A stretch of DNA of 64,000 bases from contig JABMNZ010000026.1 in assembly GCA_013204395.1 (NCBI GenBank), positions 13,421-77,420 on the forward strand, written 5' to 3'. How positions within the stretch are numbered: the stretch's first letter is position 1; each line of letters begins with the position of its first letter. The translations under genes and the position numbers were made by a program. Positions 3,789 to 28,874 of this stretch are shown here, in pieces. The notes below the pieces were generated by a model, which worked only from the letters and a program-made list of their open reading frames with translations, did not search any database and was not told the origin of the DNA. This stretch comes from Parcubacteria group bacterium (lineage in GTDB: Bacteria > Patescibacteriota > Patescibacteriia > UBA9934 > GWF2-40-263).

Positions 3789-3867
3789 TTGACTGAGCGA
3801 GAAGTCTTTGGTAGCTTAAATTTTGTGCATTTCACGCACTCAATTCTTACAAAGGGATTATTTCGCC

Positions 3868-4059
3868 ATGGGGAAGTTGTTGAAAGAGTTGGAGGAGCTC
3901 TGGCTGAAGGTGACCGAGAAGAGTTCTCGAATCGTTGATGCGTTCATGTCGAGCTTGCTCACGCTCGAGCAGGTTCGCTACGCATCTGCCACTTCCATGG
4001 GGACGCGTGCCTTGCGTCACTTCTGCAACATCGACGATCCACGATTGGCTCAGGCCTAG
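3868..4059 (+). CDS. small hypothetical protein (63 aa) in high-GC non-coding-like region
   Basis: ORF only; no RBS; may be remnant. Confidence 0.2.
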   Translation: MGKLLKELEELWLKVTEKSSRIVDAFMSSLLTLEQVRYASATSMGTRALRHFCNIDDPRLAQA

Positions 4060-4273
4060 CGTAGCAATCGTCGTCTAGCACGTAGAGACTGTGCTCGCGA
4101 GCGTGCACAACTCCTCTTAAATCGAATCCACTTGCCGAAGGTTCGGTTCCAGAGATTCCTCGGTTCGAGCACTGTTGGTTCATTCAGGCCTACCGTTCAC
4201 ATCTCTACGGCTGGTCACGGGGTTGATGGTCGGCCTCTTGTCTGTCTCAACGTCTCGCTCTGACACACGCACT

Positions 4274-4300
4274 GGATCCAAAGTGGGTCCTTTTTTATTA
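4274..4300 (+). terminator. degenerate copy of the family-specific terminator (ggatccaaagtgggtcc + T7 + ATTA)
   Basis: Same architecture and flanks as terminators at 8616 and 10271 (GGTCCAnACGyTGGACC TCTTTTTTATT). Confidence 0.5.
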
Positions 4301-4590
4301 TCCACAAGCTATTTGACAGAGGGTTCATCACACAGTAGCCTAATTGAAGTTATGAATCAGACAAGTTACATGATGCCCCACATCCTCTCAGCCGAGAATA
4401 TTCTCGACATTATTGTCGTTATTCTTCTAGGCTTTGCGGTGGCATAGTATTCTCTTGTAAATAAGAATCACTATCAATCACCGCTTAATAGCGGTGATTT
4501 CTTTTTACAAACAATGGTTCTTTCGCGACAAAACATTCTTCTGGGATGTTCTGTGGCGTAAGAAACGCCTGATTATCCTAGGAGGTGTGC

Positions 4591-5574
4591 ATGCAAGCAC
4601 TCGGCACGGTTGCCCAACTCATCAATCCCGAGTTCGTGGCCACAGAAGGTCTGTATGAGTTTCGGGAAGCTACGGCAGAAGACATTCCAGCGATTCGAGA
4701 GTTGCTGTTTGATTGGTACGGCCCCTCGTACCCTTACCCGGTCAGTGCCCTCGATCCCAAGGGGTACTACCCGGCGGCGATCGATCGGAGTACGGGCATG
4801 CTTGTCGGTTTTGCCAAAGCGGTTCCGTACAAGGGGTTTCCTTCTGTGTACGAGTTCGGTGGGCTGATCGTTGCCAAGTCTCACCGGGAGAAGAAGATCG
4901 CCAAGCATCTTACGCGGATGCGTGTCGATTGGGTTCTGTCGCTGGGTGGAGCCGCTGTGGTAAGCGAGCCCGTGTGCTATCTGAGTGGTTGTCCGAGCCA
5001 GGAGAATCTCATCAAGGCAGGTTTTCACCTGGTGGCTCTGCAGGTTGGGAAGTATCCCGACATCATGCACGACACACTTGGCTTGCAGCCCGAGAGTGTA
5101 CTCATGGCCGTTCGCTGGCTTCGTGGCAATTCCCGGCTGGGACATCGCAAGGTGTTCTTGCCTAGTTACTACCGCGGTGTGTTGCACACGTTCTTGCCCC
5201 GTTACCTGCACCAGCGGCCGTGGGACGAAACGTTTGAAGATGTGCCGATGCCCCCCGCCGTTCTCCACAAGGGGTTCACCACAGCAGGTGGAACAGGGGC
5301 AGAGTTCGCTGATGTTCCTGTGAATTGGCCCGAAGCTGAGGGGATCATTCACAGTCTTCGTCTGCAGGGATTCAGGATGTGCGGCATCCTTCCAGGCTTC
5401 GGCCGCCTGTCAGACGATCGACCTTACGACTACCTGCGCATGTACCGGTTGCCAGCAAGCTTCATCATCGGGTCAGAGTCTTTCGACTTTGACAAGGTGA
5501 ATGTTGTGCCGCAGCTGGCCGCACTCAAGCACTTTGCGAGCATGGAACTCCATGGGGACATTCCCATCGAGTAG
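4591..5574 (+). CDS. GNAT-fold acyltransferase-like protein, two-domain (~327 aa)
   Basis: GGAGGTG RBS 5 nt upstream; N-terminal GNAT-like core (EFGGLIVAKSHREKKIAKHL); high GC; tandem paralogue of next gene. Confidence 0.6.
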   Translation: MQALGTVAQLINPEFVATEGLYEFREATAEDIPAIRELLFDWYGPSYPYPVSALDPKGYYPAAIDRSTGMLVGFAKAVPYKGFPSVYEFGGLIVAKSHREKKIAKHLTRMRVDWVLSLGGAAVVSEPVCYLSGCPSQENLIKAGFHLVALQVGKYPDIMHDTLGLQPESVLMAVRWLRGNSRLGHRKVFLPSYYRGVLHTFLPRYLHQRPWDETFEDVPMPPAVLHKGFTTAGGTGAEFADVPVNWPEAEGIIHSLRLQGFRMCGILPGFGRLSDDRPYDYLRMYRLPASFIIGSESFDFDKVNVVPQLAALKHFASMELHGDIPIE

Positions 5575-5604
5575 AAACACAGACACACAGAAGACTTGGA
5601 GGGC

Positions 5605-6578: not shown

Positions 6579-6949
6579 TTGTGGAAATTTTGTGGATGAA
6601 CAGTGGACGTTTATCACTTGATTCACTTGCGTGGTTCTGGCAGCATGATAAAGTTTACTTGCCTTACGGTTCGGATGGGTGTGTCCGAAAAACAAATTGT
6701 AACAACTGGCCTGGGAATGCGGAGCTTCGGCACGGCAAAAGGGCCACACGGTTCTCAACTATCACAGCGTGGACGACATGGCGGATTAGACAAACTGCCA
6801 TCATCGCCACTAGTGATAGAGACAAAACCTGAAAGACTGGACTGGGTACTAGTCAGAACCGAACTGTGAACCAAAACTACAACAGGACCACCCATTCACC
6901 CGTTAGGCGCCAAAAAAATATAACCACCCCCCGCGGCGCGGGGGGTGGT

Positions 6950-6978
6950 TTGACGTTTAGGGGGTTTTCTTCTATTCT
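6950..6978 (+). promoter_or_regulatory. sigma70-like promoter TTGACG-N17-TATTCT preceded by GC hairpin 6924..6948
   Basis: Consensus-like -35/-10 with 17-nt spacer ~40 nt upstream of ATG 7019. Confidence 0.5.
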
Positions 6979-7018
6979 CTGCCCTTGCTCTTCTCAATTG
7001 AACACGAAAGGAAGTGTT

Positions 7019-8599
7019 ATGGAAACAAAGTTGTTCCGAGCCATTCACCTGCTGGCTGTGATCAGTGTGGCTCAATATGCGGTCGTACGTGCTTACACGT
7101 GGGGGTACCTCGGTAGCACCCCGGAGATGTTGGATTTCATGATGTGGCTATGTATTGCATACATAGGCGTATTTGAGCCACTAGCCGGTGTATTGGATAG
7201 ACGTCATGAACGGATCCTGAACTCCTTGGAATACCAAGTTGGCCACTTTGCGGCGCGGATCCAGTTCAAGACGGCTGACATGGAAGACTGTTTCGTGGCC
7301 ATGATCACTCGCCAGGCAACCAAGCACGGAATCCATTCCAGTGGTGGGTGGGCCGCAACGATTGCAGAAATCGTTTCTCGTCACATCTCCCGATGGGGGC
7401 AAGTTGATGACATGGGAGGACTACATCTCCATACGCAGTTGGAGAGAAGTGGCATCCAATTTGACTTGGATGAGATAGATCGATTCGACACCACCCTCTT
7501 CCAGATAGTGGAACGTCACGCGTCCCCATTACCTTTGGGTGTGGATCCGCTGGGTCACCAATATCTACTTGCTCGCGCCTACCTAGCAGGTGCTCTCAAA
7601 GGACTTGCTGGGTTGACCAAAGAGCTCGGTGGAGACGAGTCGATTACTCGAAACGTGCGGCCTGAGGATTTCGCCCTAGCGATTGATCTCTACTGCATGG
7701 ATCCCAGAGTGACTGACATGACGATGCTGTGGACGATGGAAGGTGATGGGGAAGTCCCGGTTGGTGCCTATGACCTCTTCTGGGTCCTGGCACATTGTCT
7801 TTACATCGGCATCGATCCTAAGTCTCTCAGACGCTACCTCGGTTACCACGGCAGTTACAGCTTCCTGGCTTTGGAAGAGCTGCTTCTGCTCAAGGCCATG
7901 AACACGCGCGTCCTTCAAGAGCTCACGGACAGGCCGAACTCCTTGGACGGGGTCCCATACGAGGAGATCAACGCCCTCGTTTGCCGATGGGAAAGTTGTG
8001 GATATCCAGAGAGCTTGGCGGTGTTCCGACAGTTCCCGGACGATGCAGCGTACTACGCCCACGTCCAAGCGCAGGAGCACGGGCGGGAACAGTTGGCTCG
8101 TCAAGAAGTTGAGCGTCGGGCACAAGAGGCTCATGAACTCGCGGCTCGAAAGGCAGAAAGCGCGCCCAAGGGTCGCAAGCGTGGTCAGGGAAACGCTCCG
8201 GTTTCTGAGCCAGTGGATCTTGATCTTCAGGCTCTGTGCGATGCGCTTGTCGTTTCCACTTCGTTCGAACATCTCGATGGAACGATCGTTTCTGTGATCA
8301 TGGTGATGGGTCTGATGGCGACCGGGGATCGTCTGCCCGCTTGGCAGGATCGACCTTCCCGTACTCGCGGAAAGATCTGGGGCCAGATCCGCTCGGTGGT
8401 TTCTGGATACGATCAGCCTCGGCGGATGGTAGATGACACGGTCACTGCTCTCGTCCGAGAGAGGGTGATTGATTACACGGGTGGCAACTACCGTCTGCGC
8501 GAGCCAAACGACGCCTTGCGAACAAGGAGTCCCGACTCACACGCACTACTCATCAGTGCCAAGGGGCTCATCAGTCGAGCCAAGGCACTAGCAAGCTGA
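7019..8599 (+). CDS. hypothetical protein, member 1 of a 3-copy paralogous family with conserved C-terminal ~130-aa domain
   Basis: AAGGAAG RBS before ATG 7019; C-terminal block D..ALC..L.V…F..LDG……GL…G.RL……P.R…K.WGQ……GGNY.L..PN aligns with 8723..10252 and 27300..28874. Confidence 0.55.
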   Translation: METKLFRAIHLLAVISVAQYAVVRAYTWGYLGSTPEMLDFMMWLCIAYIGVFEPLAGVLDRRHERILNSLEYQVGHFAARIQFKTADMEDCFVAMITRQATKHGIHSSGGWAATIAEIVSRHISRWGQVDDMGGLHLHTQLERSGIQFDLDEIDRFDTTLFQIVERHASPLPLGVDPLGHQYLLARAYLAGALKGLAGLTKELGGDESITRNVRPEDFALAIDLYCMDPRVTDMTMLWTMEGDGEVPVGAYDLFWVLAHCLYIGIDPKSLRRYLGYHGSYSFLALEELLLLKAMNTRVLQELTDRPNSLDGVPYEEINALVCRWESCGYPESLAVFRQFPDDAAYYAHVQAQEHGREQLARQEVERRAQEAHELAARKAESAPKGRKRGQGNAPVSEPVDLDLQALCDALVVSTSFEHLDGTIVSVIMVMGLMATGDRLPAWQDRPSRTRGKIWGQIRSVVSGYDQPRRMVDDTVTALVRERVIDYTGGNYRLREPNDALRTRSPDSHALLISAKGLISRAKALAS

Positions 8600-8615
8600 C
8601 CGACATGCTCGGTCT

Positions 8616-8645
8616 GAGGTCCATACGTTGGACCTCTTTTTTATT
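8616..8645 (+). terminator. rho-independent terminator (gaggtccatacgttggacctc + T-run)
   Basis: Perfect hairpin and TTTTTTATT; near-identical to 10271..10300. Confidence 0.8.
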
Positions 8646-8722: not shown

Positions 8723-10252
8723 ATGGGAAAGATGCGTGCCGTTAGGGGAAAGAAGTTCCGTCTGACCGTCCCCGGGCATGGGATGCCTGAAGAAGTGAGG
8801 TCCCTCACTCAAGGACCCGTGCTCGCAAGGTTGATGTCAACCGATTCTGCATCGGTAGTTCTGATCGATGAGCTGATCAAGTCCATGCGTTTGCTCTCAT
8901 CGGACGTCTCGTCTGTACGCGAAGCTCTGCGACGATTTGTGGAGTCTGAGCACAAGGCAGGTGAGGGTTTCGACAAGACACTCTGTCGAGTGATTGAGCA
9001 GCTATCTGAGCGCTGGACTGAGCATGGGATCAGATCCGGAATCAGGACCCTGATCTATCTGGAGAGGCACGGTTTTGCCTACGAGACACTGGGTGAACAC
9101 CTGGAGTGCTTGCGTGGTATGACGGACGTCATCATCATCGCGATCGAAGAGGGGGCACAGTTTCCCCACACCTTGGCTGGGGCTTTCCCCCTTCTTCTGC
9201 AAACGAGGGGAGAGGAGTTCCTCGTTTTGGCGATTCACATGTTCGTTCACGCACTCTCTGAGGAAGAGGGGATGGTGTGTCTGGACTACGCTCCCAGAGG
9301 ACGAAGGGTCTTGAGCATTCCTGTGGTACCCAGTGTGATGATGATGTACTGGAGAGACATGTTCGAGATCTTCAGTCCGGAGTTCGACAGAAAGAAGGCC
9401 ATTGGGCTCCCGACCACACCGTTTGACACAGGGAAACTTATCCCTGATGGGTGGAGGTGCTTCAAGCGCATTGGTGAGCTGGACCTCAATCCAGATGAAC
9501 AAAAGCGGGTCATCGATCTGGGCGCCATTCGTTTGGTTCAAGTTCTGAGGGATCGTGAGCTCAGTGTGCGGACCATGCGTTTGGCACTTTTGGCGACTGT
9601 CTCAAACACAGAACTTCAGAAGCTTCTGGACAATACTCCCGAGTACATCAGGACCGTGAAGGTCTGGGAAGCTCTGGCGTGTCTGTGCTCGCTTGGCGAA
9701 TTCCACACACTCGGAGGAACCCAGGATGCGTGGGAGACTCATGTCGCCAAGAAGGAATCTGACCGAATGCTCCGCGCAGAGCAGGTAAGGCAGAAAGCCG
9801 AGGAAGAAGCTCGTCTTCGACAAGAGCGTCAGGCTGCCAATGCTCCCAACCCACAAAAACGCGGAAGTCGCGGGTACGCTCCGGGCAAGCCTGCAGAAGT
9901 GGACTTCGAGGCCCTGTGCTCCGAGCTCGACGTCTGTACGCAGTTTCCTGGAATGGATGGTGACATCACACGCATCATCCTGGTGCACGGCTTGCTTCGC
10001 GACGGTGAGCGACTGGCTTCACTAGCAAGTCTGCCCGAGCGCAACGAGAAGAAGCTCTGGGGCCAGTGCAAGACATTCTTGGGCGGTGGCACATCACGTC
10101 GCGAGTTCAAGGGTGCTCTCGGGAAGCTCGTATCTGCTCATCTGGTTTCCTTCTCCGGAGGCAGCTACCAGCTTGGCAAACCAAACCCGCGCTTCCCTCA
10201 GGCAAACGCGGTGCTCACACAGCTCCGCGGCCTGGTGAACAAGTACAGCTGA
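8723..10252 (+). CDS. hypothetical protein, member 2 of the paralogous family
   Basis: Conserved C-terminal domain (…FEALCSELDVCTQFPGMDGD…GGSYQLGKPNPRFPQAN…); charged coiled-coil-like linker before it as in other copies. Confidence 0.6.
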   Translation: MGKMRAVRGKKFRLTVPGHGMPEEVRSLTQGPVLARLMSTDSASVVLIDELIKSMRLLSSDVSSVREALRRFVESEHKAGEGFDKTLCRVIEQLSERWTEHGIRSGIRTLIYLERHGFAYETLGEHLECLRGMTDVIIIAIEEGAQFPHTLAGAFPLLLQTRGEEFLVLAIHMFVHALSEEEGMVCLDYAPRGRRVLSIPVVPSVMMMYWRDMFEIFSPEFDRKKAIGLPTTPFDTGKLIPDGWRCFKRIGELDLNPDEQKRVIDLGAIRLVQVLRDRELSVRTMRLALLATVSNTELQKLLDNTPEYIRTVKVWEALACLCSLGEFHTLGGTQDAWETHVAKKESDRMLRAEQVRQKAEEEARLRQERQAANAPNPQKRGSRGYAPGKPAEVDFEALCSELDVCTQFPGMDGDITRIILVHGLLRDGERLASLASLPERNEKKLWGQCKTFLGGGTSRREFKGALGKLVSAHLVSFSGGSYQLGKPNPRFPQANAVLTQLRGLVNKYS

Positions 10253-10270
10253 CCGAGTTTCGCTCGGTCC

Positions 10271-10300
10271 GAGGTCCAAACGCTGGACCTCTTTTTTATT
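10271..10300 (+). terminator. rho-independent terminator (gaggtccaaacgctggacctc + T-run)
   Basis: Perfect hairpin + TTTTTTATT. Confidence 0.8.
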
Positions 10301-10354: not shown

Positions 10355-10654
10355 GTGGGCATGCGTATTGAAGATAAAAATACAGAGAGTCTTTTTCTCG
10401 CCATATTAAGTTTGCAAACCCTTGAAGAATCAAAGGCATTCTTTAGAGATTTACTCACGGAAAAAGAGATTGAGGAGTTCTCCAATCGTTGGAAAGCGGC
10501 TCGTATGCTTTCTGAGGGCATTCCCTATTCAAAGATTCAAACGGAAACAGGATTATCTTCACGGACGGTGGCTCGTATTTCCAAATGGCTCCAGTCTGGT
10601 AAGGATGGATATAAACTTATGATTAACCGAACACATCATCATGACGACTCCTAG
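10355..10654 (+). CDS. TrpR-like YerC/YecD family DNA-binding protein
   Basis: ~100 aa, …SNRW.AARMLSEG.PYS.I….GLSSRTVARISKWL… characteristic of YerC/YecD. Confidence 0.7.
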   Translation: MGMRIEDKNTESLFLAILSLQTLEESKAFFRDLLTEKEIEEFSNRWKAARMLSEGIPYSKIQTETGLSSRTVARISKWLQSGKDGYKLMINRTHHHDDS

Positions 10655-10724: not shown

Positions 10725-11870
10725 ATGAATGTTCGTGAACTAACAAAAAAACTCATCTCTCTTCAAAGTTTTGATGATGGAAGACTTTATGAAAAACCAA
10801 TGTCTGATTTTTTGGTCGCCTATGTAGAAAAGAATCTTCCATGGTTGAGTATTGATCTTCAGGAAGTGGAACCGAATCGTTTCAATGTCTATTTACGAGA
10901 TAGTTCTCCAACAAAACTTCTGGTTGTTGATCAGATTGATACGGTTGTGCCAGAGCAGGGTTGGGACGGGGAGGCACTGCTGCCTGTTGAAAGTGATGGA
11001 AGAATTTACGGTCTTGGATCAAGTGATTCAAAGGGGAACGTTGCTGCGTTTTTAAAAGCACTTGAGCGTTTCGGTGAAACAAAAGGTCTTGCCATCTTGC
11101 TTTACGTTGACGAGGAATATTGTTTCAAAGGCATGAAGTATTTTATTTCATCTTCGCTTGCTAAGAATATACAACCAGAGTTCGTCTTGTCGATCGATGG
11201 CAACGGTTCGGTTTTGGGAAGCGGTTGCCGCGGGTTGGTTGAGTTTGATATTCAGATTCGTTCTGAGTCGGGACACACGGCAAACCCAAAAACACCTGGG
11301 GCGCTTTTGCCTTACTTGACCGTTTTTCAAAAATTTCAAACATGGCTAAAGCAATACTCTGATTTGGAGCAAGGGGAGGCTACAGCACAGATTGCGAATT
11401 TACGAAGTGGTTTGATTGTTAACGAATCAGATGAAGGTTTCGTGTTCGGAAAAGAGGGTAACCGCCTTCCGAATTTCACAGAGGCGAAGATTGAAATTAG
11501 AACGACACCGACTCTCTCATGGAAAGAGATTGAAAGCTTCTGGAAGTCTGAGTTGGGTCGCTACGCTGATCTTGACGCAAGCCTAACAGGAATATTCGAT
11601 CTTGATGGATTCTCTACACCTCGTGAGAGATTGAAGCTTTTGGAGCAATCCGTTTTCGATTCCATTGGAAGTGTTTCTTACTTAGATCCATCGACTTTCG
11701 GTTACCTGGATGTGGCGATGTTGAAGACGGTTTTTCCAGATGCAAGTTTGTGTTCTTTTGGAATTGGCGAGCCGGGGGTCAATCATAAGCCAAACGAGTA
11801 TGTTCGTATCGATAGATTAGACGAGGGAGTATCTGTGTACTTGCAGATACTCAAGAAACTTCTCACCTAG
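10725..11870 (+). CDS. M20 family metallopeptidase/deacylase (ArgE/DapE-like)
   Basis: Length and motifs (LGSSDSKGN…; HTANP…) of M20 peptidase family; low GC. Confidence 0.6.
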   Translation: MNVRELTKKLISLQSFDDGRLYEKPMSDFLVAYVEKNLPWLSIDLQEVEPNRFNVYLRDSSPTKLLVVDQIDTVVPEQGWDGEALLPVESDGRIYGLGSSDSKGNVAAFLKALERFGETKGLAILLYVDEEYCFKGMKYFISSSLAKNIQPEFVLSIDGNGSVLGSGCRGLVEFDIQIRSESGHTANPKTPGALLPYLTVFQKFQTWLKQYSDLEQGEATAQIANLRSGLIVNESDEGFVFGKEGNRLPNFTEAKIEIRTTPTLSWKEIESFWKSELGRYADLDASLTGIFDLDGFSTPRERLKLLEQSVFDSIGSVSYLDPSTFGYLDVAMLKTVFPDASLCSFGIGEPGVNHKPNEYVRIDRLDEGVSVYLQILKKLLT

Positions 11871-11879
11871 GAGACAGAC

Positions 11880-12728: not shown

Positions 12729-12735
12729 TTACGCA

Positions 12736-12779: not shown

Positions 12780-13217
12780 ATGAAAGCTGTTGTTCAACGA
12801 GTAAAACGTGCGTCTGTTACGGTCGATGGGGAAGTGACAGGCTCGATCGATCAAGGGCTTTTGGTTTTTCTTGGGATCCATCAAGACGACACGGACGAGA
12901 TGATTGAAAAGATGGCTGGGAAGATCGCCAAGCTGAGAATTTTTGAAGATGAAGAAGGAAAGATGTCGCGATCTGTGGAAGATATCGGTGGAAGCGTTTT
13001 GATGGTTAGTCAGTTCACACTCTACGGAGATGTGCGTAAAGGCAATCGCCCAAGCTTTATAGAATCGGCTCGACCAGAAAAAGCCGAACCCATGTATGAA
13101 GCAGTAGTCGAGTCTATTAGAGGTCTGGGTCTTCCAGTCGAAACTGGGCGCTTCACAGCTATGATGGATGTGGAGTTAGTGAACGACGGGCCTGTAACGA
13201 TACTCATTGAACTCTAG
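12780..13217 (+). CDS. dtd: D-aminoacyl-tRNA deacylase
   Basis: MKAVVQRV…GLLVFLGI…SQFTLYGD… hallmark Dtd motifs, 145 aa. Confidence 0.85.
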
Positions 13218-17563: not shown

Positions 17564-17615
17564 GTCTGTCCTCCAAGTAGGTGCAGGTCCTCACGACGTT
17601 TATCGTCGTGGGGAG

Positions 17616-17648
17616 AAATCTGGTCTCGAGTTGCTCGAGCTCAGGTTT
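17616..17648. repeat. 33-bp imperfect palindrome AAATCTGGTCTC-N9-GAGCTCAGGTTT, copy 1 (upstream of pncB)
   Basis: Second copy at 19209..19241 with identical 12-nt arms and different 9-nt centre. Confidence 0.7.
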
Positions 17649-17707
17649 CTTTTTTTAAATAGGTCGCGCCGCCCAGGAGAGAAGCTCCAGGACGGGCGAC
17701 AGAGGGA

Positions 17708-20130: not shown

Positions 20131-20228
20131 TCAAGACTCCTGGGTGAAAGTACTTGCGGCGGTCGCAAGCGTAATCACACTATTTTTAGTGAAATTACGT
20201 CTGTGGCCACATCTCTCAACAAGGCGAG

Positions 20229-20257
20229 AGAATAGTTAATTTTGACGGTTTTGTCAA
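20229..20257 (-). promoter_or_regulatory. sigma70 promoter TTGACA-N17-TATTCT on minus strand, ~95 nt upstream of pncA
   Basis: Perfect -35, 17-nt spacer. Confidence 0.55.
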
Positions 20258-20530
20258 TGATTTATGGATGGATATGAAATGAATTTTTTTACGTGTAAAC
20301 CTCCGTGGGTACGACACATGCACGTAATTGCTATGAGTTAAGTTTTTATCATTTTGTCGGGAGCGCGCTCGGGTCTAGGCTCAAAAGGTCTAAACCCGAG
20401 CCGCTCTCTCTTTCCAGCATCGTACGCTGGGGTGCGGGGAGAGAGGGTCATCCCGCACCTTAGGGTATGATGATGTAGATACTACACTAAGTCTTGGTAG
20501 TGTTTAGGCGGGGAATGATCCCCGCCTATT

Positions 20531-21226
20531 TTATACAACTTGTACGTAGACAAGTTTTCTTTCTTTGAATCGATAGAGGGCTGCTGGCCTATGGGCTTGG
20601 CCGGATCGTTTATGACCGGTGGCCTGGATCAGGTGGAGTTCATTAATTCGTTTTCTGAAGTTTCTTTTATCAAGATCTTGATCCATGACGATCTCGTATA
20701 CACGTTGGAGCTCTGTGAGAGTGAATTCTTTTGCAAGCAGACTCCAGGCGATGTTGGTGTATTGGATTTTTGTTTTTACGCGCTCCAATGTGGTCTGCAC
20801 GATCGTCTTGTGATCGTAAGCCAGGGGAGGGAGCTTGCTCACAGGCCACCACTTAACGTCCAGGTATTTTTCACTGGTCTTTAGTGAGGCATGTTCATCT
20901 GGAACAAGAGCGACATGGGCAATAGAAATGACTCGTCCTGCTGGGTCGCGGTCTGGTTCATCAAACGTCATAAGTTGCTCAAGGTATACCTGAGTGAGTC
21001 CGGTCGATTCTTTCAAGATTCTGCTCGCAGCCTGTTCGCTGGTCTCTTCTTCTTCAAGAAGCCCACCAGGTAATGCCCATTGCCCCTCAAACGGTTGCTT
21101 CTTCATTTGAATGAGCAAGACATGAAGTTCATCATCTTGAATAGAAAGAATGCACGTATCAACCGCGGCTTTAATATTCTGTGGTGATGAGTGATGCTTA
21201 ATCATATTGGTGTGTATTGTACACAA
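20531..21226 (-). CDS. nrtR: NrtR-type regulator: Nudix (ADP-ribose-binding) domain + C-terminal winged-helix
   Basis: Nudix box GQWALPGGLLEEEETSEQAASRILKESTG; C-terminal FTLTELQRVYEIVMDQDLDKRNFRKRINEL… resembles NrtR wHTH; low GC. Confidence 0.6.
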   Translation of the reverse strand: MCTIHTNMIKHHSSPQNIKAAVDTCILSIQDDELHVLLIQMKKQPFEGQWALPGGLLEEEETSEQAASRILKESTGLTQVYLEQLMTFDEPDRDPAGRVISIAHVALVPDEHASLKTSEKYLDVKWWPVSKLPPLAYDHKTIVQTTLERVKTKIQYTNIAWSLLAKEFTLTELQRVYEIVMDQDLDKRNFRKRINELHLIQATGHKRSGQAHRPAALYRFKERKLVYVQVV

Positions 21227-21273
21227 ACTATGGTGGATGTCAAGTCAAAAGAAAGACGCTATACTTTTGAGGT

Positions 21274-22254: not shown

Positions 22255-22255
22255 T

Positions 22256-22996: not shown

Positions 22997-22997
22997 T

Positions 22998-23357
22998 ATG
23001 CGTGCACAATTTATCTATATCGCCGTTATCGTCATCACCACGTTTATTCCGTGGTTGATTACTCTTGCCGCGCTAGGTCCCGCCAGCTCACTGCCAAGGT
23101 TTCTTTTTCTGGCGGTGTACTATGCCATAAGCGTTCTGCTCTTCGGGGTGGCGTTTGCAAATTATTTTAAGGGTCACCAAAAAGAAAGTCCGTTTTCTGT
23201 CATGGGAGTAGCCATGCTAAGCATCTTCTTTTTCGAGATCGTCTATTTCAAATATCTTTATGTGGGTGACCTGTGGTTTCTCACCTATCTTGATTGGGTC
23301 GTGCCAGTGTTCCTCATATCCTCAACCATTTACTTCGTAGGAAAGGCCCTTAAGTGA
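22998..23357 (+). CDS. small 4-TM membrane protein (paralogue of 29087..29452)
   Basis: Shared C-terminal block E.V.F.YLY.G..WFL...DW.VPVFL...TIY.VG. Confidence 0.5.
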   Translation: MRAQFIYIAVIVITTFIPWLITLAALGPASSLPRFLFLAVYYAISVLLFGVAFANYFKGHQKESPFSVMGVAMLSIFFFEIVYFKYLYVGDLWFLTYLDWVVPVFLISSTIYFVGKALK

Positions 23358-23420
23358 GGCCTTTTCTGTTTGGAGTATCTCTGCTAACCTCTCTCGACAT
23401 GCTCAACGGGAGGTAGTGCT

Positions 23421-24281
23421 ATGTTCAAGAAGTTTCTGGGAATCATGACGGTCGTGATCTTTGCGATCGGAATGCTGATCGTGTCGATCCCCGAACTGCT
23501 CTGTCGCAGAATGCTGAATGCACTCAAACGTGCAGATGAAGACGTCCGAAGTCACACCGAACGTCGGTGGCAGGCTGTCTGGGCCAGACGGTACTGGTGG
23601 CTGATCAAGGCCATCATGGGCATGGAGATGACGCCGAAGTTTCTGGGTCCGCCCCAGACAACTGGTGGGCCGTACATTTACCTACTCAACCACCGATGTG
23701 TCCTGGATCACTTCCTTGGCCAAATGGTGATTGACGCTCAATTTGTTCACGACAGCTTTTGGGTGATCAAGGAAGCTATGGCGCGAGCTCCAGGAATGGG
23801 GCGATCCATGGCGACGGCCGGGTACGCGCTGGTCAAGCGTGGCGGTCAGGATCCTGAAGGGGACATTGAGCGCATCTGCGAGATGGCCAGGCGTGCCAAG
23901 CTCATCGGGGCGTCAGTGGTGATCTACGCAGAGGGAACGCGTTACGATTACCTGGAGCGGTCGCTCAGAGGACAGCGAAGCGACTTCGATCCCCATTTGG
24001 CCAACCCAAGGACAGCTGGCTTCAATGCCCTGTGTAGCGAGCTTCCAGATTACCGCGTGAAGGTGGTGTGTCTGGACTGGGCTGGCATGGAAGGGGGACG
24101 CACTCTCTGGGATGGCAGGGCCTTCGTTGGTCTTCATGGCAGTGTCCATGTCTGGGAAGAGGAGAATCCTGGAGCAGACGGCGCAGCCAACTTCCTACAC
24201 GCGATGTGGCAGCGCATGCACGACACCATGAGCGGCAAAGACGGACTGTCCTTGCGCGTGGTCAGCAACACAGGAGCCTGA
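23421..24281 (+). CDS. lysophospholipid (1-acyl-sn-glycerol-3-phosphate) acyltransferase family
   Basis: NHRCVLDH (HX4D) and YAEGTR (FPEGTR) motifs; GGGAGG RBS; high GC. Confidence 0.7.
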   Translation: MFKKFLGIMTVVIFAIGMLIVSIPELLCRRMLNALKRADEDVRSHTERRWQAVWARRYWWLIKAIMGMEMTPKFLGPPQTTGGPYIYLLNHRCVLDHFLGQMVIDAQFVHDSFWVIKEAMARAPGMGRSMATAGYALVKRGGQDPEGDIERICEMARRAKLIGASVVIYAEGTRYDYLERSLRGQRSDFDPHLANPRTAGFNALCSELPDYRVKVVCLDWAGMEGGRTLWDGRAFVGLHGSVHVWEEENPGADGAANFLHAMWQRMHDTMSGKDGLSLRVVSNTGA

Positions 24282-24321
24282 TCGGTTCCAACGCACTCGT
24301 CGAGTCATCGGCGGGTTTTTT

Positions 24322-24330
24322 TGTTACACT
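24322..24330 (+). promoter_or_regulatory. extended -10 TGtTACACT, 6 nt before ATG 24337 (leaderless-type)
   Basis: Directly follows T7 run ending high-GC gene. Confidence 0.35.
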
Positions 24331-24336
24331 GGATTC

Positions 24337-24669
24337 ATGAGAGTCTTTTACTATAATGACCAATGTCCTTACTGTCGGAGCTGGGCTCGGTGGTGTGAGG
24401 CTAGGGTGGGGGAGTTCGTTGCGTTTAAACCGCTTGGCCCAACGGATTCAAAAACATCGCCGAAGTATATCGACGACGCTGGAACGATTTTTTTGGGCTC
24501 GCGTGGCGTGTTTGAGATGTTGTCTTTTTCAAAGCGTTGGCGATGGCTCAAGACACTGTATCGATTTGTTCCTGGGTTTGCCCCTGTGAGCGAGTGGCTA
24601 TTTGCCTATCTGTCCAAGTGCCCGGTATGTGCCAGTAAATTTACACGTTTAATTTTAAGATCTAAATAA
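24337..24669 (+). CDS. DCC-family thiol-disulfide oxidoreductase (DUF393)
   Basis: VFYYNDQCPYC…. Confidence 0.6.
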   Translation: MRVFYYNDQCPYCRSWARWCEARVGEFVAFKPLGPTDSKTSPKYIDDAGTIFLGSRGVFEMLSFSKRWRWLKTLYRFVPGFAPVSEWLFAYLSKCPVCASKFTRLILRSK

Positions 24670-26447: not shown

Positions 26448-26450
26448 TAC

Positions 26451-26478
26451 AAAAAATCCCCACCGTCGTAGGTGGGGG
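26451..26478 (-). terminator. rho-independent terminator (minus)
   Basis: A6 then ccccaccgtcgtaggtgggg hairpin. Confidence 0.7.
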
Positions 26479-26479
26479 G

Positions 26480-27208
26480 TCATGACTGGTCCAGCCAAGT
26501 CATGATGCGGTCGAGTGTTGGGCGAACTCTCTGGAAGTTCTCTGTGCAGATCAAGCTGTGGTCACCGGCGGTGCGCACGGTCTGAACGTCCTCGCCAGGG
26601 TAGGTGGCAGCAGAGACGAAGAAGTCGTTCTCTGGCACGATCGCCATCACTGGGCAAGGGAAAGGCTTTTGCCAGAGTCGAAGTGGTGGAAGAGCAAGCT
26701 GCTTCACGGCCTTGCAGGGTTCTCCATGCATGGCTCCCATGAGCTGCCGCTTGAAGGACGAGTCACCGTCTTCAGACGTTCCATTGAGCATCAGCGCGTC
26801 GAGCTGAGTTGGTGTGTCCAGTATCAGGTCGTGGCCGCGCAGGACTCTCCAGAGGGGCTTGAAGGCGATGGGGAGCGAATGTAGGAGGACCAGTATTCGG
26901 ATCCCGCAACGTTCTAGGCCGCTGATGAGTACTACCTTCTTGAAGAGGTTTGGACGCAGAGTCGCAACACCCCGAGCTGTCTGGGCTCCAGCGCTGTAGC
27001 AGATCGCGAAGGCCCCGTCTGGAACGTCTCGGAGCTTTGCTTCAGCATCGCTGACGTAGTCCTTGAGAGAGTGGCTACGGTAAGAGATCAGGATGATGTT
27101 CCAGTCCACGAAGTGACTGATCACGTGGCGGAACCACCAACGGACATACTTCTCGTTTCTGTTTCCCCAAGAGCCCGGAAAGAGCACTAGGTTTTGTCTG
27201 CCTCCCAT
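26480..27208 (-). CDS. alpha/beta-hydrolase fold serine hydrolase
   Basis: …ICYSAGA… nucleophile elbow; GGAGGA RBS; high GC. Confidence 0.5.
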   Translation of the reverse strand: MGGRQNLVLFPGSWGNRNEKYVRWWFRHVISHFVDWNIILISYRSHSLKDYVSDAEAKLRDVPDGAFAICYSAGAQTARGVATLRPNLFKKVVLISGLERCGIRILVLLHSLPIAFKPLWRVLRGHDLILDTPTQLDALMLNGTSEDGDSSFKRQLMGAMHGEPCKAVKQLALPPLRLWQKPFPCPVMAIVPENDFFVSAATYPGEDVQTVRTAGDHSLICTENFQRVRPTLDRIMTWLDQS

Positions 27209-27271
27209 GAATCCTCCGGAAAAAGGGTGACATGGGAGCGTAGGTAATTTTAGGGTTCACGTCAAGGAATA

Positions 27272-27301
27272 TAAAGAAAAATGAGACTCCGTATGAGTCT
27301 C
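27272..27301 (-). terminator. rho-independent terminator (minus) after paralogue 3
   Basis: gagactc-cgtat-gagtctc hairpin then U-run on minus strand. Confidence 0.65.
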
Positions 27302-28874
27302 ATGTCGAGTACTTTGCCACCAGGCCCCAGAGCTGCGAGAGCAGGGTGTTGGCCTTGGGGAACCGTGGATTTTTGCGGGCGAGTTGGTAGTTGCCGCCCG
27401 TGTAGCTGATCAGGTGGGCATCCACCAGTGATCGCATGGCTTTGACCAGCTGCCTTCGGCTGGTAAGTGACACGTGATCTTTCACCTGTCGCCACACCTT
27501 CTTGTCATCTCGCGATGGCAGGGAGTCTGCCGTTGCCAAACGCTCTCCAGTTTGCAGGAGCCCGTAGACAAGTACTGCGCTCACGAGATCTCCGTCCAGG
27601 TCCGGGAAGGACGCGCAAACGTTGAGCTCGGAGCAGAGTGCATCAAAATCTGCAGATGCTTGCTCGCCATCATCTTTGAAGTTGGGGTGATGGCGTTTGT
27701 TTCCGGTTGGTTTTTGTTCGACAGGACGAGTGGGTGGGGACGTGTTTGCATCGCCTGATGGGATTGCTTGCAGACGTGGCAAAACCGTTTCCGTTTTCAG
27801 GGCCTCTAGGGCTGCTTTCGCGGTCAGGTGATTGTTCCAGTCAGCAGCAGAGCCACCAATGTCCCAAAACTCCCTGAGCAGGCAGGGACGTCCGACTTGC
27901 TCCCATTGATCAACAAGGTGTCGTAGTAGAGCCTGGTCGTTAAAGGTATAACGGAGGAGATCTGGTTCCTGCAGGCAGAGCGTCAAACTCTCTTGCGTGA
28001 GATCTCCGCGCTCGATCATGAGAAGGGCCATGAGTCCACCCGTGAACGAGAGTTCCTCGATGACTTTGCGCAAGTCGACCCTTCTGAATCCACTCAGTCG
28101 CGCTGCTGTGAACAGCTCCCACAACCGAAGTGGACCGTAGATCTCTTCGTAGAACATGACCCTATCGCAGACGTCGCGAATCTCAGGGAACGAGAGAAAG
28201 AACTCAATGGCAAGTAGCAGTGCGTCAAGGTCCTGCGGGTCTGGAAGGACAGGAGGATTTTCACTGAGAATGATCCGCCGGTCTTTGGTCAAGGCCAGCA
28301 TGGCCGTTACGGCGATTAGGCGCTTCGCCTGCGGTCCGTAATTACTGTCCGATGTCTCGATGACGTCAAGCTTGTTTTTGCTCAGGTCACTAAGACGGTT
28401 CACGAAGCTTTGAAGGTTCCTTGTACTTGTGAACCTCAGACCAAACGTCTCTACGATGTGTAGAACGCTGAGTGTCCTGTCGAGGTCTTTGCCGAAGATG
28501 TCCGTAAGTGATGCCACAACGCTGTTCATCGTGGCCAGGTATCCACCACGCTTCATGGGGCCCACACTGAGCGTCATTCTCGTGAGTGCCGTCGTCAGAC
28601 ATTCAACTGAGCCGGGTTGGATTCCCTTGTCTTCAAGCCATTTGCGCCACGTGGAGGGGATGAGACGATCGTCATCCTTGATCATTCTCCATGCATGGCT
28701 AGAGGGAATGATGTCGATGTCCATTTCACGGCCAAGCGAGTGGAGTACACCATTACGACGCTGCCCCTTGTATCCGGGGATTTGTTCGAACTCTGCTGTA
28801 AGCCTGGGTTCGATGGTGAGACACTGGATGTAGCGGTATCCACGACTGGATCTGCCTTGCAGTTTCACGTGCAC
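27300..28874 (-). CDS. hypothetical protein, member 3 of the paralogous family
   Basis: AAGGAGGTG RBS; C-terminal …FDALCSELNVCASFPDLDGD…GGNYQLARKNPRFPKAN…. Confidence 0.6.
   Translation of the reverse strand: MHVKLQGRSSRGYRYIQCLTIEPRLTAEFEQIPGYKGQRRNGVLHSLGREMDIDIIPSSHAWRMIKDDDRLIPSTWRKWLEDKGIQPGSVECLTTALTRMTLSVGPMKRGGYLATMNSVVASLTDIFGKDLDRTLSVLHIVETFGLRFTSTRNLQSFVNRLSDLSKNKLDVIETSDSNYGPQAKRLIAVTAMLALTKDRRIILSENPPVLPDPQDLDALLLAIEFFLSFPEIRDVCDRVMFYEEIYGPLRLWELFTAARLSGFRRVDLRKVIEELSFTGGLMALLMIERGDLTQESLTLCLQEPDLLRYTFNDQALLRHLVDQWEQVGRPCLLREFWDIGGSAADWNNHLTAKAALEALKTETVLPRLQAIPSGDANTSPPTRPVEQKPTGNKRHHPNFKDDGEQASADFDALCSELNVCASFPDLDGDLVSAVLVYGLLQTGERLATADSLPSRDDKKVWRQVKDHVSLTSRRQLVKAMRSLVDAHLISYTGGNYQLARKNPRFPKANTLLSQLWGLVAKYST

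Follow-up and report, generated by a model that had tools for sequence, protein, structure and literature searches.

A GC-rich accessory gene set with a complete NAD-salvage operon in a Parcubacteria genome related to Candidatus Uhrbacteria

In groundwater Patescibacteria, 83% of inferred incoming gene transfers originate from other Patescibacteria (PMC12455944), and bacterial genes that recombine have a higher GC3 (PMC4450053). We analyzed a 64,000-nucleotide stretch (the window) of a Parcubacteria genome (CPR) related to Candidatus Uhrbacteria. Its NadE and PncB proteins are 100% identical to NCBI entries of a 'Parcubacteria group bacterium' MAG, and the NadE proteins of the syntenic relatives GCA_016188495.1 and GCA_016206085.1 are labelled Candidatus Uhrbacteria. 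An earlier note on this DNA had proposed a CPR or Saccharibacteria-type host; the first part agrees with the NCBI label and with the ribosomal operon, in which S5 is directly followed by L15 and the L30 gene is missing, but the lineage is Parcubacteria/Uhrbacteria and not Saccharibacteria.

The window is a strong compositional mosaic. GC content ranges from 0.37 to 0.62 in 500-nt windows. Per gene, GC is 0.37-0.49 and GC3 0.25-0.49 in the backbone, against 0.54-0.61 and 0.56-0.84 in the blocks singled out earlier. GC3 is strongly heterogeneous among 54 genes (chi2 = 1450, df 53, p ~1e-268), and the earlier observation of GC-rich blocks set off sharply from a low-GC backbone is confirmed. When pooled, the 16 accessory genes of the high-GC class have 57.7% GC (GC1/2/3 = 61/44/68), the low-GC non-translation (housekeeping) genes 44.5% (54.5/38/41), and the translation genes a GC3 of 35%. 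By codon usage the genes form two discrete classes and not an expression gradient, although GC3 by rank is a broad continuum across genes. Intermediate GC was also seen in genes outside the earlier list, i.e., orf133 (35855-36256, minus strand, 0.53), RecO (0.53) and HAD (0.50).

As the earlier note had stated, block boundaries coincide with gene ends. In 150-nt bins GC shifts there by 0.10-0.19, e.g., from 0.44 to 0.58 at the M20/unk282 junction (11875) and from 0.61 to 0.41 between the pncA start and the adjoining spacer (20131). The first block begins around 4585 instead of 3790; the segment 3728-4584 has a GC content of 0.468 and contains a decayed gene remnant. Long spurious antisense ORFs are indeed present: a 572-aa ORF at 15524-17242 (plus strand) overlaps the PncB and Nudix genes and lacks a Pfam match, and the JGI gene calls over the NAD operon (L001) are on the opposite strand, also without Pfam matches. 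Because the same sequence was recovered in JGI, Logan and NCBI assemblies and related genomes display the same mosaic, an assembly artefact is excluded. No tRNA or flanking repeat was found at the GC-rich blocks, nor an integrase among the Pfam-scanned ORFs of the window.

Table 1. Features of the window discussed in the text
Feature	Position	Strand	GC (GC3)	Basis or remark
GNAT-family acetyltransferase, 329 aa	4585..5574	+	0.572 (0.66)	Pfam Acetyltransf_1
Second GNAT acetyltransferase, 314 aa	5596..6540	+	0.540	Pfam Acetyltransf_1/7
Orphan family copy 1, 577-aa ORF	6866..8599	+	0.550	No Pfam match
Terminator-like hairpin with T-run, 39 nt	8607..8645	+		Repeat search
Orphan family copy 2 (unk509), 509 aa	8723..10252	+	0.560	Alignment; no Pfam match
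TrpR-like HTH	10355..10654	+	0.413	Pfam match
M20 peptidase	10725..11870	+	0.430	Pfam match
unk282, no assigned family, 282 aa	11880..12728	+	0.575	Begins 9 nt past M20 stop
Dtd, D-Tyr-tRNA deacylase	12780..13217	+	0.473	Pfam Tyr_Deacylase, E = 1.8e-62
NadE, glutamine-dependent NAD+ synthetase, 676 aa	13371..15401	-	0.597 (0.74)	Pfam CN_hydrolase + NAD_synthase
Nudix hydrolase, ADP-ribose pyrophosphatase-like (Nudix216), 216 aa	15505..16155	-	0.608	Weak Pfam NUDIX match
PncB, nicotinate phosphoribosyltransferase, 433 aa	16262..17563	-	0.595 (0.79)	Pfam NAPRTase + NAPRTase_N
Conserved hairpin/palindrome, PncB 5' leader	17606..17656	-		Repeat family
NadD (NaMN adenylyltransferase)-NadK (NAD kinase) fusion, 482 aa	17708..19156	-	0.605	Pfam CTP_transf_like + NAD_kinase N and C domains
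Divergent PncA-like nicotinamidase, 273 aa	19309..20130	-	0.612 (0.82)
Low-GC spacer, sigma-70-like promoter (TTGACA-17-TATTCT) and 28-bp imperfect palindrome	20131..20530	-	0.46	Sequence inspection
NrtR, Nudix-related transcriptional regulator of NAD metabolism	20531..21205	-	0.459	Pfam NUDIX + NrtR_WHD
PlsC-like acyltransferase (acylT286), 286 aa	23421..24281	+	0.577	Pfam Acyltransferase
Alpha/beta hydrolase, 242 aa	26480..27208	-	0.571	Weak Pfam Abhydrolase_6 match
Orphan family copy 3, 524-aa ORF (JGI: 461 aa)	27300..28874	-	0.547	Alignment
ADP-ribosylglycohydrolase, 312 aa	32156..33094	-	0.575	Pfam ADP_ribosyl_GH, E = 1e-60
Small hydrophobic ORF, 139 aa from ATG	57178..57597	+	(0.84)	NCBI: hypothetical protein HQ488_05115
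Small ORF, 133 aa	60523..60924	+	(0.79)	NCBI: HQ488_05150

The genes of the GC-rich blocks are accessory genes. The GC-rich compartment (~58%, with the core at ~44%) consists of the NAD-salvage operon, GNATs, acyltransferase, hydrolases, ADP-ribosylglycohydrolase, the orphan family and small ORFs (Table 1). The operon is predicted to encode the route from nicotinamide to NAD(P) through PncA, PncB, NadD, NadE and NadK, plus a Nudix hydrolase of ADP-ribose type; such salvage fits a reduced CPR cell that would depend on vitamin salvage. NadE (NF002730, 523 bits) and PncB (TIGR01514, 293.6) exceed the NCBIfam cut-offs of 473 and 269.6, respectively. The NadD (residues 7-204) and NadK (256-475) matches stay under the cut-offs, as does the YffH/AdpP-type match of the Nudix protein, the length of which is the same in the Logan call and the L087 annotation. 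The earlier PncA call is upheld by matches to PDB nicotinamidases (E = 7e-8 and 3.6e-4); NCBIfam PRK11609 matched under its cut-off (E = 8e-6).

The regulator gene nrtR is low in GC beside GC-rich NAD genes in relatives L084, L085, L087 and L095, and its product is 97% identical to that of L087. The palindrome in the adjoining spacer is a candidate NrtR operator, and the promoter and palindrome portion is kept in L087. The PncB-leader hairpin recurs in the NadD-NadK leader (19198-19249); 4 of its 13 predicted pairs show compensatory changes among five copies from the window, L087 and L083, and it had no match in Rfam.

The proposal that NadE and PncA/PncB are typical of Actinobacteria and that the donor could be an actinobacterial host is contradicted by homology. 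The nearest NadE homologues (58-73% identity) are all in the Uhrbacteria clade, and beyond it identity is at most 40%. The best 80 matches in GTDB genomes, at no more than 38%, are scattered over phyla and include two Actinomycetes loci (36-37%), no closer than Bacillota or Bacteroidota. PncB homologues share 57-84% identity within the clade, and named matches at 48-51% are mostly Parcubacteria. For the two GC-rich genes covered by this search, NadE and PncB, the closest homologues thus belong to the backbone's own lineage, and recent import from an actinobacterial host was rejected. Tetranucleotide profiles also best matched Uhrbacteria loci, a result confounded by shared homologous genes. 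By Lawrence-Ochman regression, GC1/2/3 of the GC-rich class suggest a home genome of 56-64% GC, in agreement with the 60% of clade members L088 and L089, and its codon usage looks equilibrated to a genome of ~60% GC. If there was a high-GC donor, it would have to be sought among GC-richer members of this clade. In L088, the GC-richest relative with a comparable backbone, the NAD cluster is itself ~0.12 above the backbone in GC3, so import from GC-rich relatives is not the whole story.

Recent private insertion was rejected as well, since the blocks occupy conserved syntenic positions in relatives. Contigs from 10 relatives (3-22 kb each) show high GC in the corresponding genes, with the change at the corresponding junctions. 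NadE is above backbone GC in all seven genomes compared (GC3 offset +0.10 to +0.34); the Dtd gene is a backbone anchor adjoining it, and the pair is kept in L083, L087, L094 and L095. The M20/unk282 junction and its jump (GC3 from 0.47-0.51 to 0.81-0.82) are kept in five loci (L084, L090-L093), and in L091 the order is GNAT (high GC), TrpR-like (low), M20 (low) and unk282 (high). Toward L095, backbone synonymous sites are saturated (dS at least 2.6, estimated with the simple Nei-Gojobori method although composition is skewed). Despite this, GC3 is 0.67-0.85 in three genes that share the backbone topology: acylT286, PncB and Nudix216. The contrast must therefore be actively kept up and cannot be the fading trace of a single transfer. 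The comparison shows the GC-rich genes to be long-term residents of the lineage at fixed chromosomal positions.

These residents evolve fast. Backbone proteins are 93-99% (~95%) identical between the window and L087, e.g., 99% for the TrpR-like protein, whereas NadE and NadD-NadK share 73% and 70% (dS 1.1-1.3). Spacers that are 93-96% identical flank coding regions that are only 72-85% identical. The NadE tree is star-like, as is NadD-NadK in a three-genome comparison; in L095 the same locus encodes a NadE type of 38% identity together with another PncA, and PncB occurs as two types within the clade. In-place allele or gene replacement among relatives is evident for NadE, PncA and PncB types. 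Gene acquisition thus stands as exchange that shaped accessory genes; overall, the earlier interpretation is partly supported and largely wrong, the GC-rich genes being the lineage's own fast-evolving accessory genes.

How they stay GC-rich is less certain. We give about even chances to an old, clade-internal gene set whose high GC would be sustained as its genes are exchanged or recombined with those of relatives, with GC-biased conversion as a possible contributor. Accessory genes would be repeatedly swapped gene for gene with clade members, with conserved spacers acting as recombination anchors. Because several clade members have ~60% GC, the compartment would stay near the composition of the clade-wide pool, and GC-biased gene conversion in recombining genes might reinforce this, while core genes would track the lineage's lower GC. 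Between lineages, GC-rich orthologues are no closer than the backbone (unk282 51-56% vs 59% for M20 with L084 and L090-L093; acylT286 64% vs 76-90%), which recent sharing from a common pool does not predict, unless that pool coalesces very deeply. An intrinsic gene-specific force fits as well as exchange: acylT286, PncB and Nudix216 look vertically inherited yet stay GC-rich. Synteny of the acylT286 gene extends to L087, L095 and the P0243 contig, its tree has the backbone topology, and in each of the three genomes for which DNA was at hand its GC3 lies at 0.67-0.81.

Among the remaining GC-rich genes, the first GNAT is 96% identical to its L087 orthologue at equal GC (dS 0.21), and its L091 homologue (45%) is likewise GC-rich (0.595). 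Homologues of the alpha/beta hydrolase in L084 and L095 have GC of 0.62 and 0.64. unk282 had no match in Pfam or NCBIfam, and the reading frame of the 133-aa ORF was picked by GC3. The ADP-ribosylglycohydrolase gene, flanked by unk887 and MurA, has a counterpart at the equivalent position of the P0243 contig, split into two ORFs.

The three orphan paralogues, identified by alignment, belong to a family with only 37 clusters among 1.84e9 protein representatives and no match in IMG/VR. Copy 1 likely starts at M52 (about 7019), giving 526 aa as in the JGI gene call, and is 74% identical to a 525-aa L087 gene. Copy 2 shares 43% identity (dS 1.59) with the L087 gene at the same position, and copy 3 37% with its syntenic homologue in P0243. 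The terminator-like hairpin has a 92% identical second copy at 10262-10300, so that one follows each tandem paralogue.

GC content in the window is strongly uneven, ranging from 0.37 to 0.62 in 500-nt windows. In a gene model checked against Pfam, housekeeping genes have a GC of 0.37-0.49 and a GC3 of 0.25-0.49, and the blocks that an earlier note had singled out as GC-rich reach 0.54-0.61 and 0.56-0.84, respectively. By class, GC is 57.7% in the GC-rich genes vs 44.5% in the backbone. GC3 is far from uniform over the 54 window genes (chi2 = 1450, p ~1e-268), which bears out the deviating composition of the blocks. The claim that block limits coincide with gene ends also holds, since GC flips by 0.10-0.19 exactly there in 150-nt bins, and the long spurious antisense ORFs noticed earlier indeed cover the GC-rich genes and have no Pfam matches. 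The listed blocks are GC-rich, but the first starts at about 4585 and not at 3790, and three genes of intermediate GC (orf133, RecO and HAD) were missing from the list. A strand or replication effect on GC was rejected, because GC-rich genes are found on either strand and the cumulative GC skew shows a monotonic rise.

The region just before the corrected start of the first block has a GC of 0.47 and carries a decayed gene remnant (Table). At 60% identity, it aligns with residues 86-201 of a GC-rich, 202-aa gene, of which L087, a collinear relative, has an intact copy. The remnant is likely a pseudogene, because the stop codon ending orf78 interrupts its reading.

Features of the window and of related contigs (window positions unless a contig is named)
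Feature	Position	Strand	Remark
Ndk	3266-3727	+	low GC
Region with gene remnant	3728-4584		GC 0.47
Gene remnant	3910-4257	+	likely pseudogene
Stop codon ending orf78	4057-4059		interrupts remnant
Orphan-family gene	6866-8599	+	tandem copy
Terminator-like repeat	8607-8645		39 nt
Orphan-family gene	8723-10252	+	tandem copy
Terminator-like repeat	10262-10300		39 nt
Orphan-family gene	27300-28874	-
M20 and unk282	10725-12728		TrpR-like-Dtd spot
AstE/AspA-like deacylase and GNAT	L087 11750-13120; L094 12534-13790; L095 15821-17158		TrpR-like-Dtd spot
NAD-salvage operon	13371-20130	-	largest GC-rich block
NadE, glutamine-dependent	NAD operon	-	above NF002730 cut-off
Nudix hydrolase	NAD operon	-	Pfam, NCBIfam
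PncB	NAD operon	-	above TIGR01514 cut-off
NadD-NadK fusion, 482 aa	17708-19156	-	Pfam, NCBIfam; NaMN adenylyltransferase and NAD kinase
Nicotinamidase, divergent (PncA-like)	NAD operon	-	PDB matches, E = 7e-8
NrtR-PncA spacer	20131-20530	-	low GC; candidate promoter and operator
Leader hairpin	17606-17656; 19198-19249	-	candidate regulatory element
Leader hairpin	L087 5235-5286, 6820-6871; L083 2864-2914		candidate regulatory element
JGI gene calls	L001 5167-9897 (window ~15500-20200)	opposite	no Pfam matches
NadE of other type, 653 aa	L095 13289-15250		38-40% identical
Different PncA	L095 7462-8238		25% identical; weak Isochorismatase Pfam match
S5	52062-52703
L15	52709-53155
Small ORF	57178-57597	+	GC3 0.84
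Small ORF	60523-60924	+	GC3 0.79

Ranked by GC3 the genes form a continuum, while their codon usage falls in two classes. Codons ending in C make up a fraction of 0.26-0.46 of the NAY codons in translation genes; for ordinary low-GC genes the range is 0.27-0.38, for the GC-rich class 0.61-0.88, and the leucine codon TTA scores 0.15, 0.13 and 0.00 in the same order. These are two discrete codon-usage classes with no expression gradient. Translation genes have the lowest GC3. Expression-linked codon selection was rejected as the sole cause, as ordinary low-GC genes share the codons of ribosomal genes and the GC-rich class stands apart. The latter is atypical at all three codon positions (GC1/2/3 = 61/44/68), and amino-acid usage is shifted too, with a rho of -0.62 between K/(K+R) and GC3. 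By the regressions of the amelioration framework that Lawrence and Ochman (1997) are reported to have introduced, these values imply a home genome of 56-64% GC for the GC-rich class and of 43-45% for the backbone. The clade does hold genomes of such composition: L088 and L089 have 60% GC with GC-rich backbone genes, and NCBI Uhrbacteria MAGs have numbers of 36 to 58 in their names, taken here as GC percentages by naming convention. Tetranucleotides of the GC-rich set correlate best with Uhrbacteria loci (r of 0.34-0.60, vs 0.24 for an Actinomycetes MAG and 0.29 for its own backbone). The tetranucleotide analysis proposed earlier points to the Uhrbacteria relatives, although the signal, like that of dinucleotides, is weak and confounded by shared homologous genes.

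Protein identity, gene content and gene order place the organism in the CPR, and within it in Parcubacteria/Uhrbacteria rather than Saccharibacteria. This placement is made because several island ORFs, as well as NadE, PncB and EF-G, match proteins of an NCBI "Parcubacteria group bacterium" MAG (HQ488_04810-05150) at 100% identity, because S5 is followed by L15 after a 5-nt gap with no L30 gene between them, and because the order ComEC-MBL-Ndk-M20…NadE-NrtR…MurA…S12-S7-EF-G is common to MAGs whose NadE is labelled Candidatus Uhrbacteria. Brown et al. (2015) reportedly describe absence of L30 as a CPR trait. Of the lineage guess in the earlier note, the CPR part therefore stands and the Saccharibacteria part does not: the named close relatives are all Parcubacteria/Uhrbacteria, and no Saccharibacteria label occurs among the named matches listed.

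Since the contig is derived from a metagenome and its composition alternates, fragments of GC-rich and GC-poor organisms might have been joined during assembly or binning. Independent JGI and Logan assemblies (L001 and L002), however, match the window bar one mismatch over the overlapping 20-22 kb, and the NCBI MAG encodes identical proteins. The GC switches occur at gene ends and not at random positions, and ten related contigs from other samples show the same gene order and mosaic. We give a chimera practically no credence. With only one base distinguishing them from the window, L001 and L002 are unusable for polarizing substitutions.

The earlier note had explained the blocks by recent acquisition from a high-GC donor, for example the actinobacterial host of a Saccharibacteria-type epibiont. 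A sharp, gene-bounded shift in GC and codon usage is indeed the classical signature of alien genes, the genome is CPR, and a glutamine-dependent NadE and the PncA/PncB pair occur in Actinobacteria. The lineage, Parcubacteria/Uhrbacteria, does not fit that scenario, and neither do the closest homologues. NadE is 58-73% identical to about 14 proteins, the named ones from Candidatus Uhrbacteria, after which identity falls sharply to 40% or less. A GTDB genome scan with NadE alone matched no relative; with an alignment of the clade, it gave identities of 32-38%, with nothing above 38% among the matches listed, spread over Bacillota, Bacteroidota, Chloroflexota, Planctomycetota and others. Two Actinomycetes MAGs reached 36-37%, no closer than other phyla among the best 80 GTDB matches, which speaks against an actinobacterial donor. 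PncB is 84% identical to the copy of the nearest relative and 57-60% identical to those of other clade members. Its named matches at 48-51% come from Portnoybacteria, Komeilibacteria and Buchananbacteria, all Parcubacteria, and from Vicinamibacteria, with no Actinobacteria among them. Both proteins thus have their closest homologues in the clade of the backbone itself, the finding that the note had named as contrary to its own reading.

Insertion of a mobile element was also considered and rejected: no tRNA was found in the window, no integrase or transposase had a Pfam match among the ORFs scanned, and the blocks are flanked only by short chance-like matches, not by direct repeats. These absences, together with blocks that are syntenic and equally GC-rich in relatives, make a recent foreign import very improbable. 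Published counts agree: in groundwater Patescibacteria, 83% of inferred transfer events were within the phylum, and Actinomycetota were the donor in 1/131 (PMC12455944). A sharp GC and codon anomaly in a CPR genome is no proof of recent import and no guide to the host; the alien-looking genes are here the lineage's own.

The comparison with relatives is based on ten related contigs, fetched via NadE, PncB, unk282 (a 282-aa ORF) and an orphan protein family; these are short contigs with simple substitution estimates. L087 (GCA_041294365.1) is collinear with window positions 2229-24483, the islands included, and has nearly the same GC gene by gene (window/L087: NadE 0.597/0.607, GNAT329 0.572/0.570, TrpR-like 0.413/0.412). 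Several blocks occupy the same positions in L095, L084, L090-L093 and the P0243 contig. In this 114-kb JGI contig, an acyltransferase, a hydrolase, an orphan-family gene (only 37% identical) and an ADP-ribosylglycohydrolase are found where the window has them. NadE is GC-richer than the adjoining backbone in 7/7 genomes, over a range of backbone GC3 from 0.31 to 0.73, with GC3 offsets of +0.20 (L094), +0.34 (window), +0.33 (L087), +0.10 (L083), +0.33 (L095), +0.11 (L084) and +0.12 (L088). At the junction of M20 and unk282, genes separated by 9 nt in the window, GC3 in L084 and L090-L093 jumps from 0.47-0.51 to 0.81-0.82 at only 51-59% protein identity. L091 repeats the full alternation, its GC running from GNAT (0.60) through a 285-aa gene (0.46), TrpR-like (0.41) and M20 (0.49) to an unk282-like gene (0.63). 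GC3 ranks are not significantly conserved between the window and L084 (Spearman rho 0.24; three GC-rich genes account for the Pearson r of 0.64), and for this reason junction-level and class-level comparisons were used.

At the GC-rich loci, gene-for-gene replacement takes place. Between the window and L087, low-GC genes are 93-99% identical, Ndk (79%) excepted, and NadE, NadD-NadK and the orphan-family copies unk577 and unk509 are 73%, 70%, 74% and 43% identical, with dS ranging from 0.05 to 1.6 over adjacent genes. Across window positions 12729-24483, non-coding spacers are 92-96% identical to those of L087 and the flanked GC-rich coding sequence 71-85%, so that spacers are more conserved than the coding sequence beside them, a pattern opposite to that expected under neutrality. 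For the Dtd|NadE spacer, identity is 93.5%, vs 71.6% for NadE, whose alignment has no gaps over 2031 nt. Similarly, the Nudix|PncB spacer is 95% identical vs 79-85% for coding sequence, and acylT286, a 286-aa acyltransferase at 84%, lies between spacers at 92-96%. The NadE tree is star-like, and NadD-NadK is equidistant in the triple of window, L087 and L095 (70/74/72%). The NadE of another type and the different PncA that L095 carries at the same locus (Table) are in-place xenologous replacements, and PncB comes in two types within the clade. Relatives exchange their NAD-salvage genes while the locus itself stays in place.

The spot between the TrpR-like gene and Dtd holds M20 and unk282 in the window, L084 and L090-L093, and an AstE/AspA-like deacylase with a GNAT in L087, L094 and L095. 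A low-GC deacylase-type gene and a GC-rich gene make up the pair in three of the genomes (window, L087 and L095). Ndk is a case of its own: it has low GC, yet with a dS of 1.48 to L087 it stands between neighbors that are at least 93% identical. Its divergence implies that allele replacement also hits genes of backbone composition at the edge of the variable region.

Divergence from L095 is much deeper. Backbone proteins are 76-90% identical, backbone dS is at least 2.6, and identity at fourfold sites is 0.35-0.41 against a random expectation of 0.26-0.27. In the triple of window, L087 and L095, acylT286, PncB and Nudix216 (the 216-aa Nudix hydrolase) follow the backbone topology with a two- to three-fold higher divergence. 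Their GC3 is 0.67-0.85 in both the window and L095 lineages, and that of the backbones 0.39-0.60. Because GC-rich genes stay GC-rich where the synonymous sites of the backbone are saturated, one transfer that then ameliorated passively could not have left this pattern, and the GC contrast must be renewed or actively held. The GC mosaic is an old feature of the lineage itself and is being maintained.

This bears directly on the idea of one ancient acquisition, in which the ancestor of the clade took the genes from a GC-rich source outside the CPR and passed them on vertically, with incomplete amelioration. The NadE clade is monophyletic, with a gap from 58% to 40% identity to all other sequences, and such a history would also fit the atypical composition at three codon positions and the shift in amino-acid usage. 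A passive relic should, however, match the GC of each genome once synonymous sites are saturated, and the NadE offset persists in all seven genomes despite their different backbones. Many separate, scattered genes would each need the same history. Moreover, the orphan family has no counterpart beyond its 37 clusters, and for NadE there is no GC-rich outgroup nearer than 40%. An ancient single acquisition is therefore improbable in our judgment.

The explanation that we favor, with about even confidence, is that the GC-rich genes are the flexible gene set of the clade, held near the composition of a clade-wide pool by recurrent replacement or recombination. The pool would include genomes of about 60% GC, and accessory genes would stay near its composition because recurrent replacement, or recombination in the conserved spacers, keeps them GC-rich. 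GC-biased conversion may contribute (Lassalle et al., 2015, PMC4450053). Three findings weigh against exchange with a clade pool: GC-rich orthologues are no more similar between lineages than backbone genes, three of the GC-rich genes look vertically inherited yet remain GC-rich, and the offset is present even in the 60% GC genome L088.

The last two of these findings also speak for the main rival, in which two compartments exist without exchange and a gene-specific force sets a different stationary GC under vertical descent. This force could be GC-biased gene conversion, acting where genes recombine readily and are under weak constraint. Alternatively, selection for A/U-ending codons and cheaper nucleotides could act on constitutively used core genes only, leaving accessory genes at an unselected equilibrium. 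Persistence of high GC in acylT286, PncB and Nudix216 on the backbone topology speaks for such a force, as do the offset of NadE in every genome and a M20|unk282 jump of equal size in the window and L084. It also agrees with a dN/dS of 0.15-0.36 in GC-rich genes vs 0.03-0.17, with the lowest GC3 being found in translation genes, and in direction with Lassalle et al. (2015, PMC4450053). Other observations are difficult to reconcile with it. Codon usage is the same in ordinary low-GC and ribosomal genes, and the GC-rich class forms a population of its own, without an expression gradient. M20 and unk282, probably co-transcribed because they lie 9 nt apart on the same strand, differ in GC3 by 0.24. 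GNAT homologues in L094 have backbone GC, so that genes of this family are not GC-rich by nature. The GC3 gap of 0.27 looks much larger than the differences associated with GC-biased gene conversion in bacteria, and a NadE at 73% in a backbone at about 95% with conserved spacers is left unexplained. On balance, we regard purely intrinsic compartments as possible but doubtful, and allele turnover from a clade pool as the better account.

A broader proposal, which we put forward as tentative, is that an Uhrbacteria-like CPR clade maintains a two-compartment genome in which rapidly evolving accessory genes lie about 13 GC (27 GC3) points above the core, gene by gene and across saturated divergence. 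These ultra-small bacteria would be naturally competent (ComEC is encoded in the window), and the contrast would be driven by strong GC-biased gene conversion or by allele turnover coupled to recombination. If true, the clade would offer uncommonly good natural material for weighing GC-biased gene conversion against AT-biased mutation in bacteria. Both GC states stand side by side in these genomes, a few nucleotides apart, and a maintained, reversed contrast of core and accessory genes would help decide whether gene conversion or selection lifts bacterial GC above mutational equilibrium.

Parts of this picture are already known from other systems. Flexible islands with allele replacement between conserved flanks include O-antigen and capsule loci and, in marine bacteria, the so-called replacement islands. 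As in these, conserved flanks or spacers surround far more divergent coding sequence in the window, and non-homologous or distant alleles alternate at one locus (NadE types, PncA types, M20 with unk282 vs AstE with GNAT). The cargo differs, being central cofactor metabolism and small enzymes and not surface polysaccharide genes; single genes appear swapped and not whole cassettes, and the islands are GC-rich and not AT-rich. With atypical genomic islands, or alien gene classes, the window shares gene-bounded blocks of deviant GC, GC3, codon and amino-acid usage, enriched in accessory functions and orphan genes. Unlike those, its blocks lack mobility genes, tRNA targets and flanking repeats, are found at the same positions in relatives and have their nearest homologues within the lineage. 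Their deviation also does not decay, persisting at saturated synonymous divergence, and its direction is upward, against the usual pattern of accessory genomes being poorer in GC than the core (Bohlin, 2017, PMC5303225).

GC-biased gene conversion leaves a related signature. In bacteria, recombining genes have higher GC, chiefly at third positions, with non-optimal GC-ending codons gained and AU-ending ones lost (Lassalle et al., 2015, PMC4450053). The GC-rich genes of the window likewise have high GC, most at third positions, but they are accessory genes. At 27 GC3 points, the gap also looks far above the values reportedly found for core genes. For Patescibacteria, the passages searched in Gios et al. 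(2025, PMC12455944) describe transfer mainly within the phylum, with a mean partner divergence of ~24% that suggests old events, and in those passages a conserved, gene-by-gene GC-rich compartment or its deep persistence does not appear. The window departs from these precedents in the reversed direction, the gap of 13 GC and 27 GC3 points, the single-gene sharpness and the persistence over saturated divergence in a CPR clade.

The largest GC-rich block, an operon downstream of the low-GC NrtR gene, contains a complete route from nicotinamide to NAD(P), on which a reduced CPR cell would depend. The NadD-NadK fusion also occurs in L083, L087, L089, L094 and L095. Other GC-rich genes encode two GNATs, an acyltransferase, an alpha/beta hydrolase, an ADP-ribosylglycohydrolase, unk282, two small ORFs and three orphan-family paralogues. 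The GC-rich compartment is an annotation hazard, as gene callers are misled: JGI calls on L001 run across the NAD operon on the opposite strand. The real genes were recovered by the Logan calls, and by NCBI for PncB and PncA.

NrtR has an N-terminal NUDIX domain (6e-17) and a C-terminal NrtR_WHD domain (7e-25) in Pfam. It lies directly upstream of, and on the same strand as, PncA-like, NadD-NadK, PncB, Nudix and NadE, and linkage to NAD genes is also found in L084, L085, L087 and L095. This arrangement of a Nudix and winged-helix regulator next to pncA, nadD, pncB, a Nudix gene and nadE resembles the NrtR regulon of NAD metabolism as reportedly described by Rodionov et al. (2008), and the leaders hold palindromic candidate operators. 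It differs in that NadD is fused to NadK, that the regulator has backbone GC next to NAD genes ~14 GC points higher, and that a hairpin without an Rfam family is repeated in two leaders. In the spacer between NrtR and PncA, TTGACA-17-TATTCT precedes an imperfect palindrome of 28 bp, GTAATTTCACTAAAAATAGTGTGATTAC, which is kept in L087; this spacer is a candidate promoter with NrtR operator.

The repeated hairpin, or imperfect palindrome of ~33-35 nt (AAACCTGAG[CTCGAG]CAA[CTCGAG]ACCAGATTTCTC), is conserved and occurs in the PncB 5' leader and in that of NadD-NadK. The L083 copy lies upstream of ADPrGH-PncB, and a terminator-like hairpin precedes each copy in the window and L087. Four of its 13 predicted pairs show compensatory changes. 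Rfam, in gathering and E-value modes, gave no match for this element or anywhere in the window. The hairpin may act on the NAD salvage genes as a cis-regulatory RNA or as an operator.

The orphan family comprises proteins of about 500 aa, with three window paralogues that are 25-30% identical and share the C-terminal motif DFxALCSELxVCxxFPxxDGD…GGNYQL. As a word-indexed search gave 3 proteins only, an exhaustive profile search was done, which found 37 clusters among 1.84 billion (1.84e9) representatives; none was found in IMG/VR. The family evolves very rapidly: for the copy at the same position, identity falls to 43% in L087 and to 37% in the P0243 contig. The two small ORFs of high GC3 toward the end of the window are embedded in low-GC genes; one is hydrophobic, and NCBI lists both as hypothetical proteins. 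A terminator-like 39-nt repeat (92% identical) follows both tandem orphan-family genes, which suggests that gene and terminator were duplicated as a unit.
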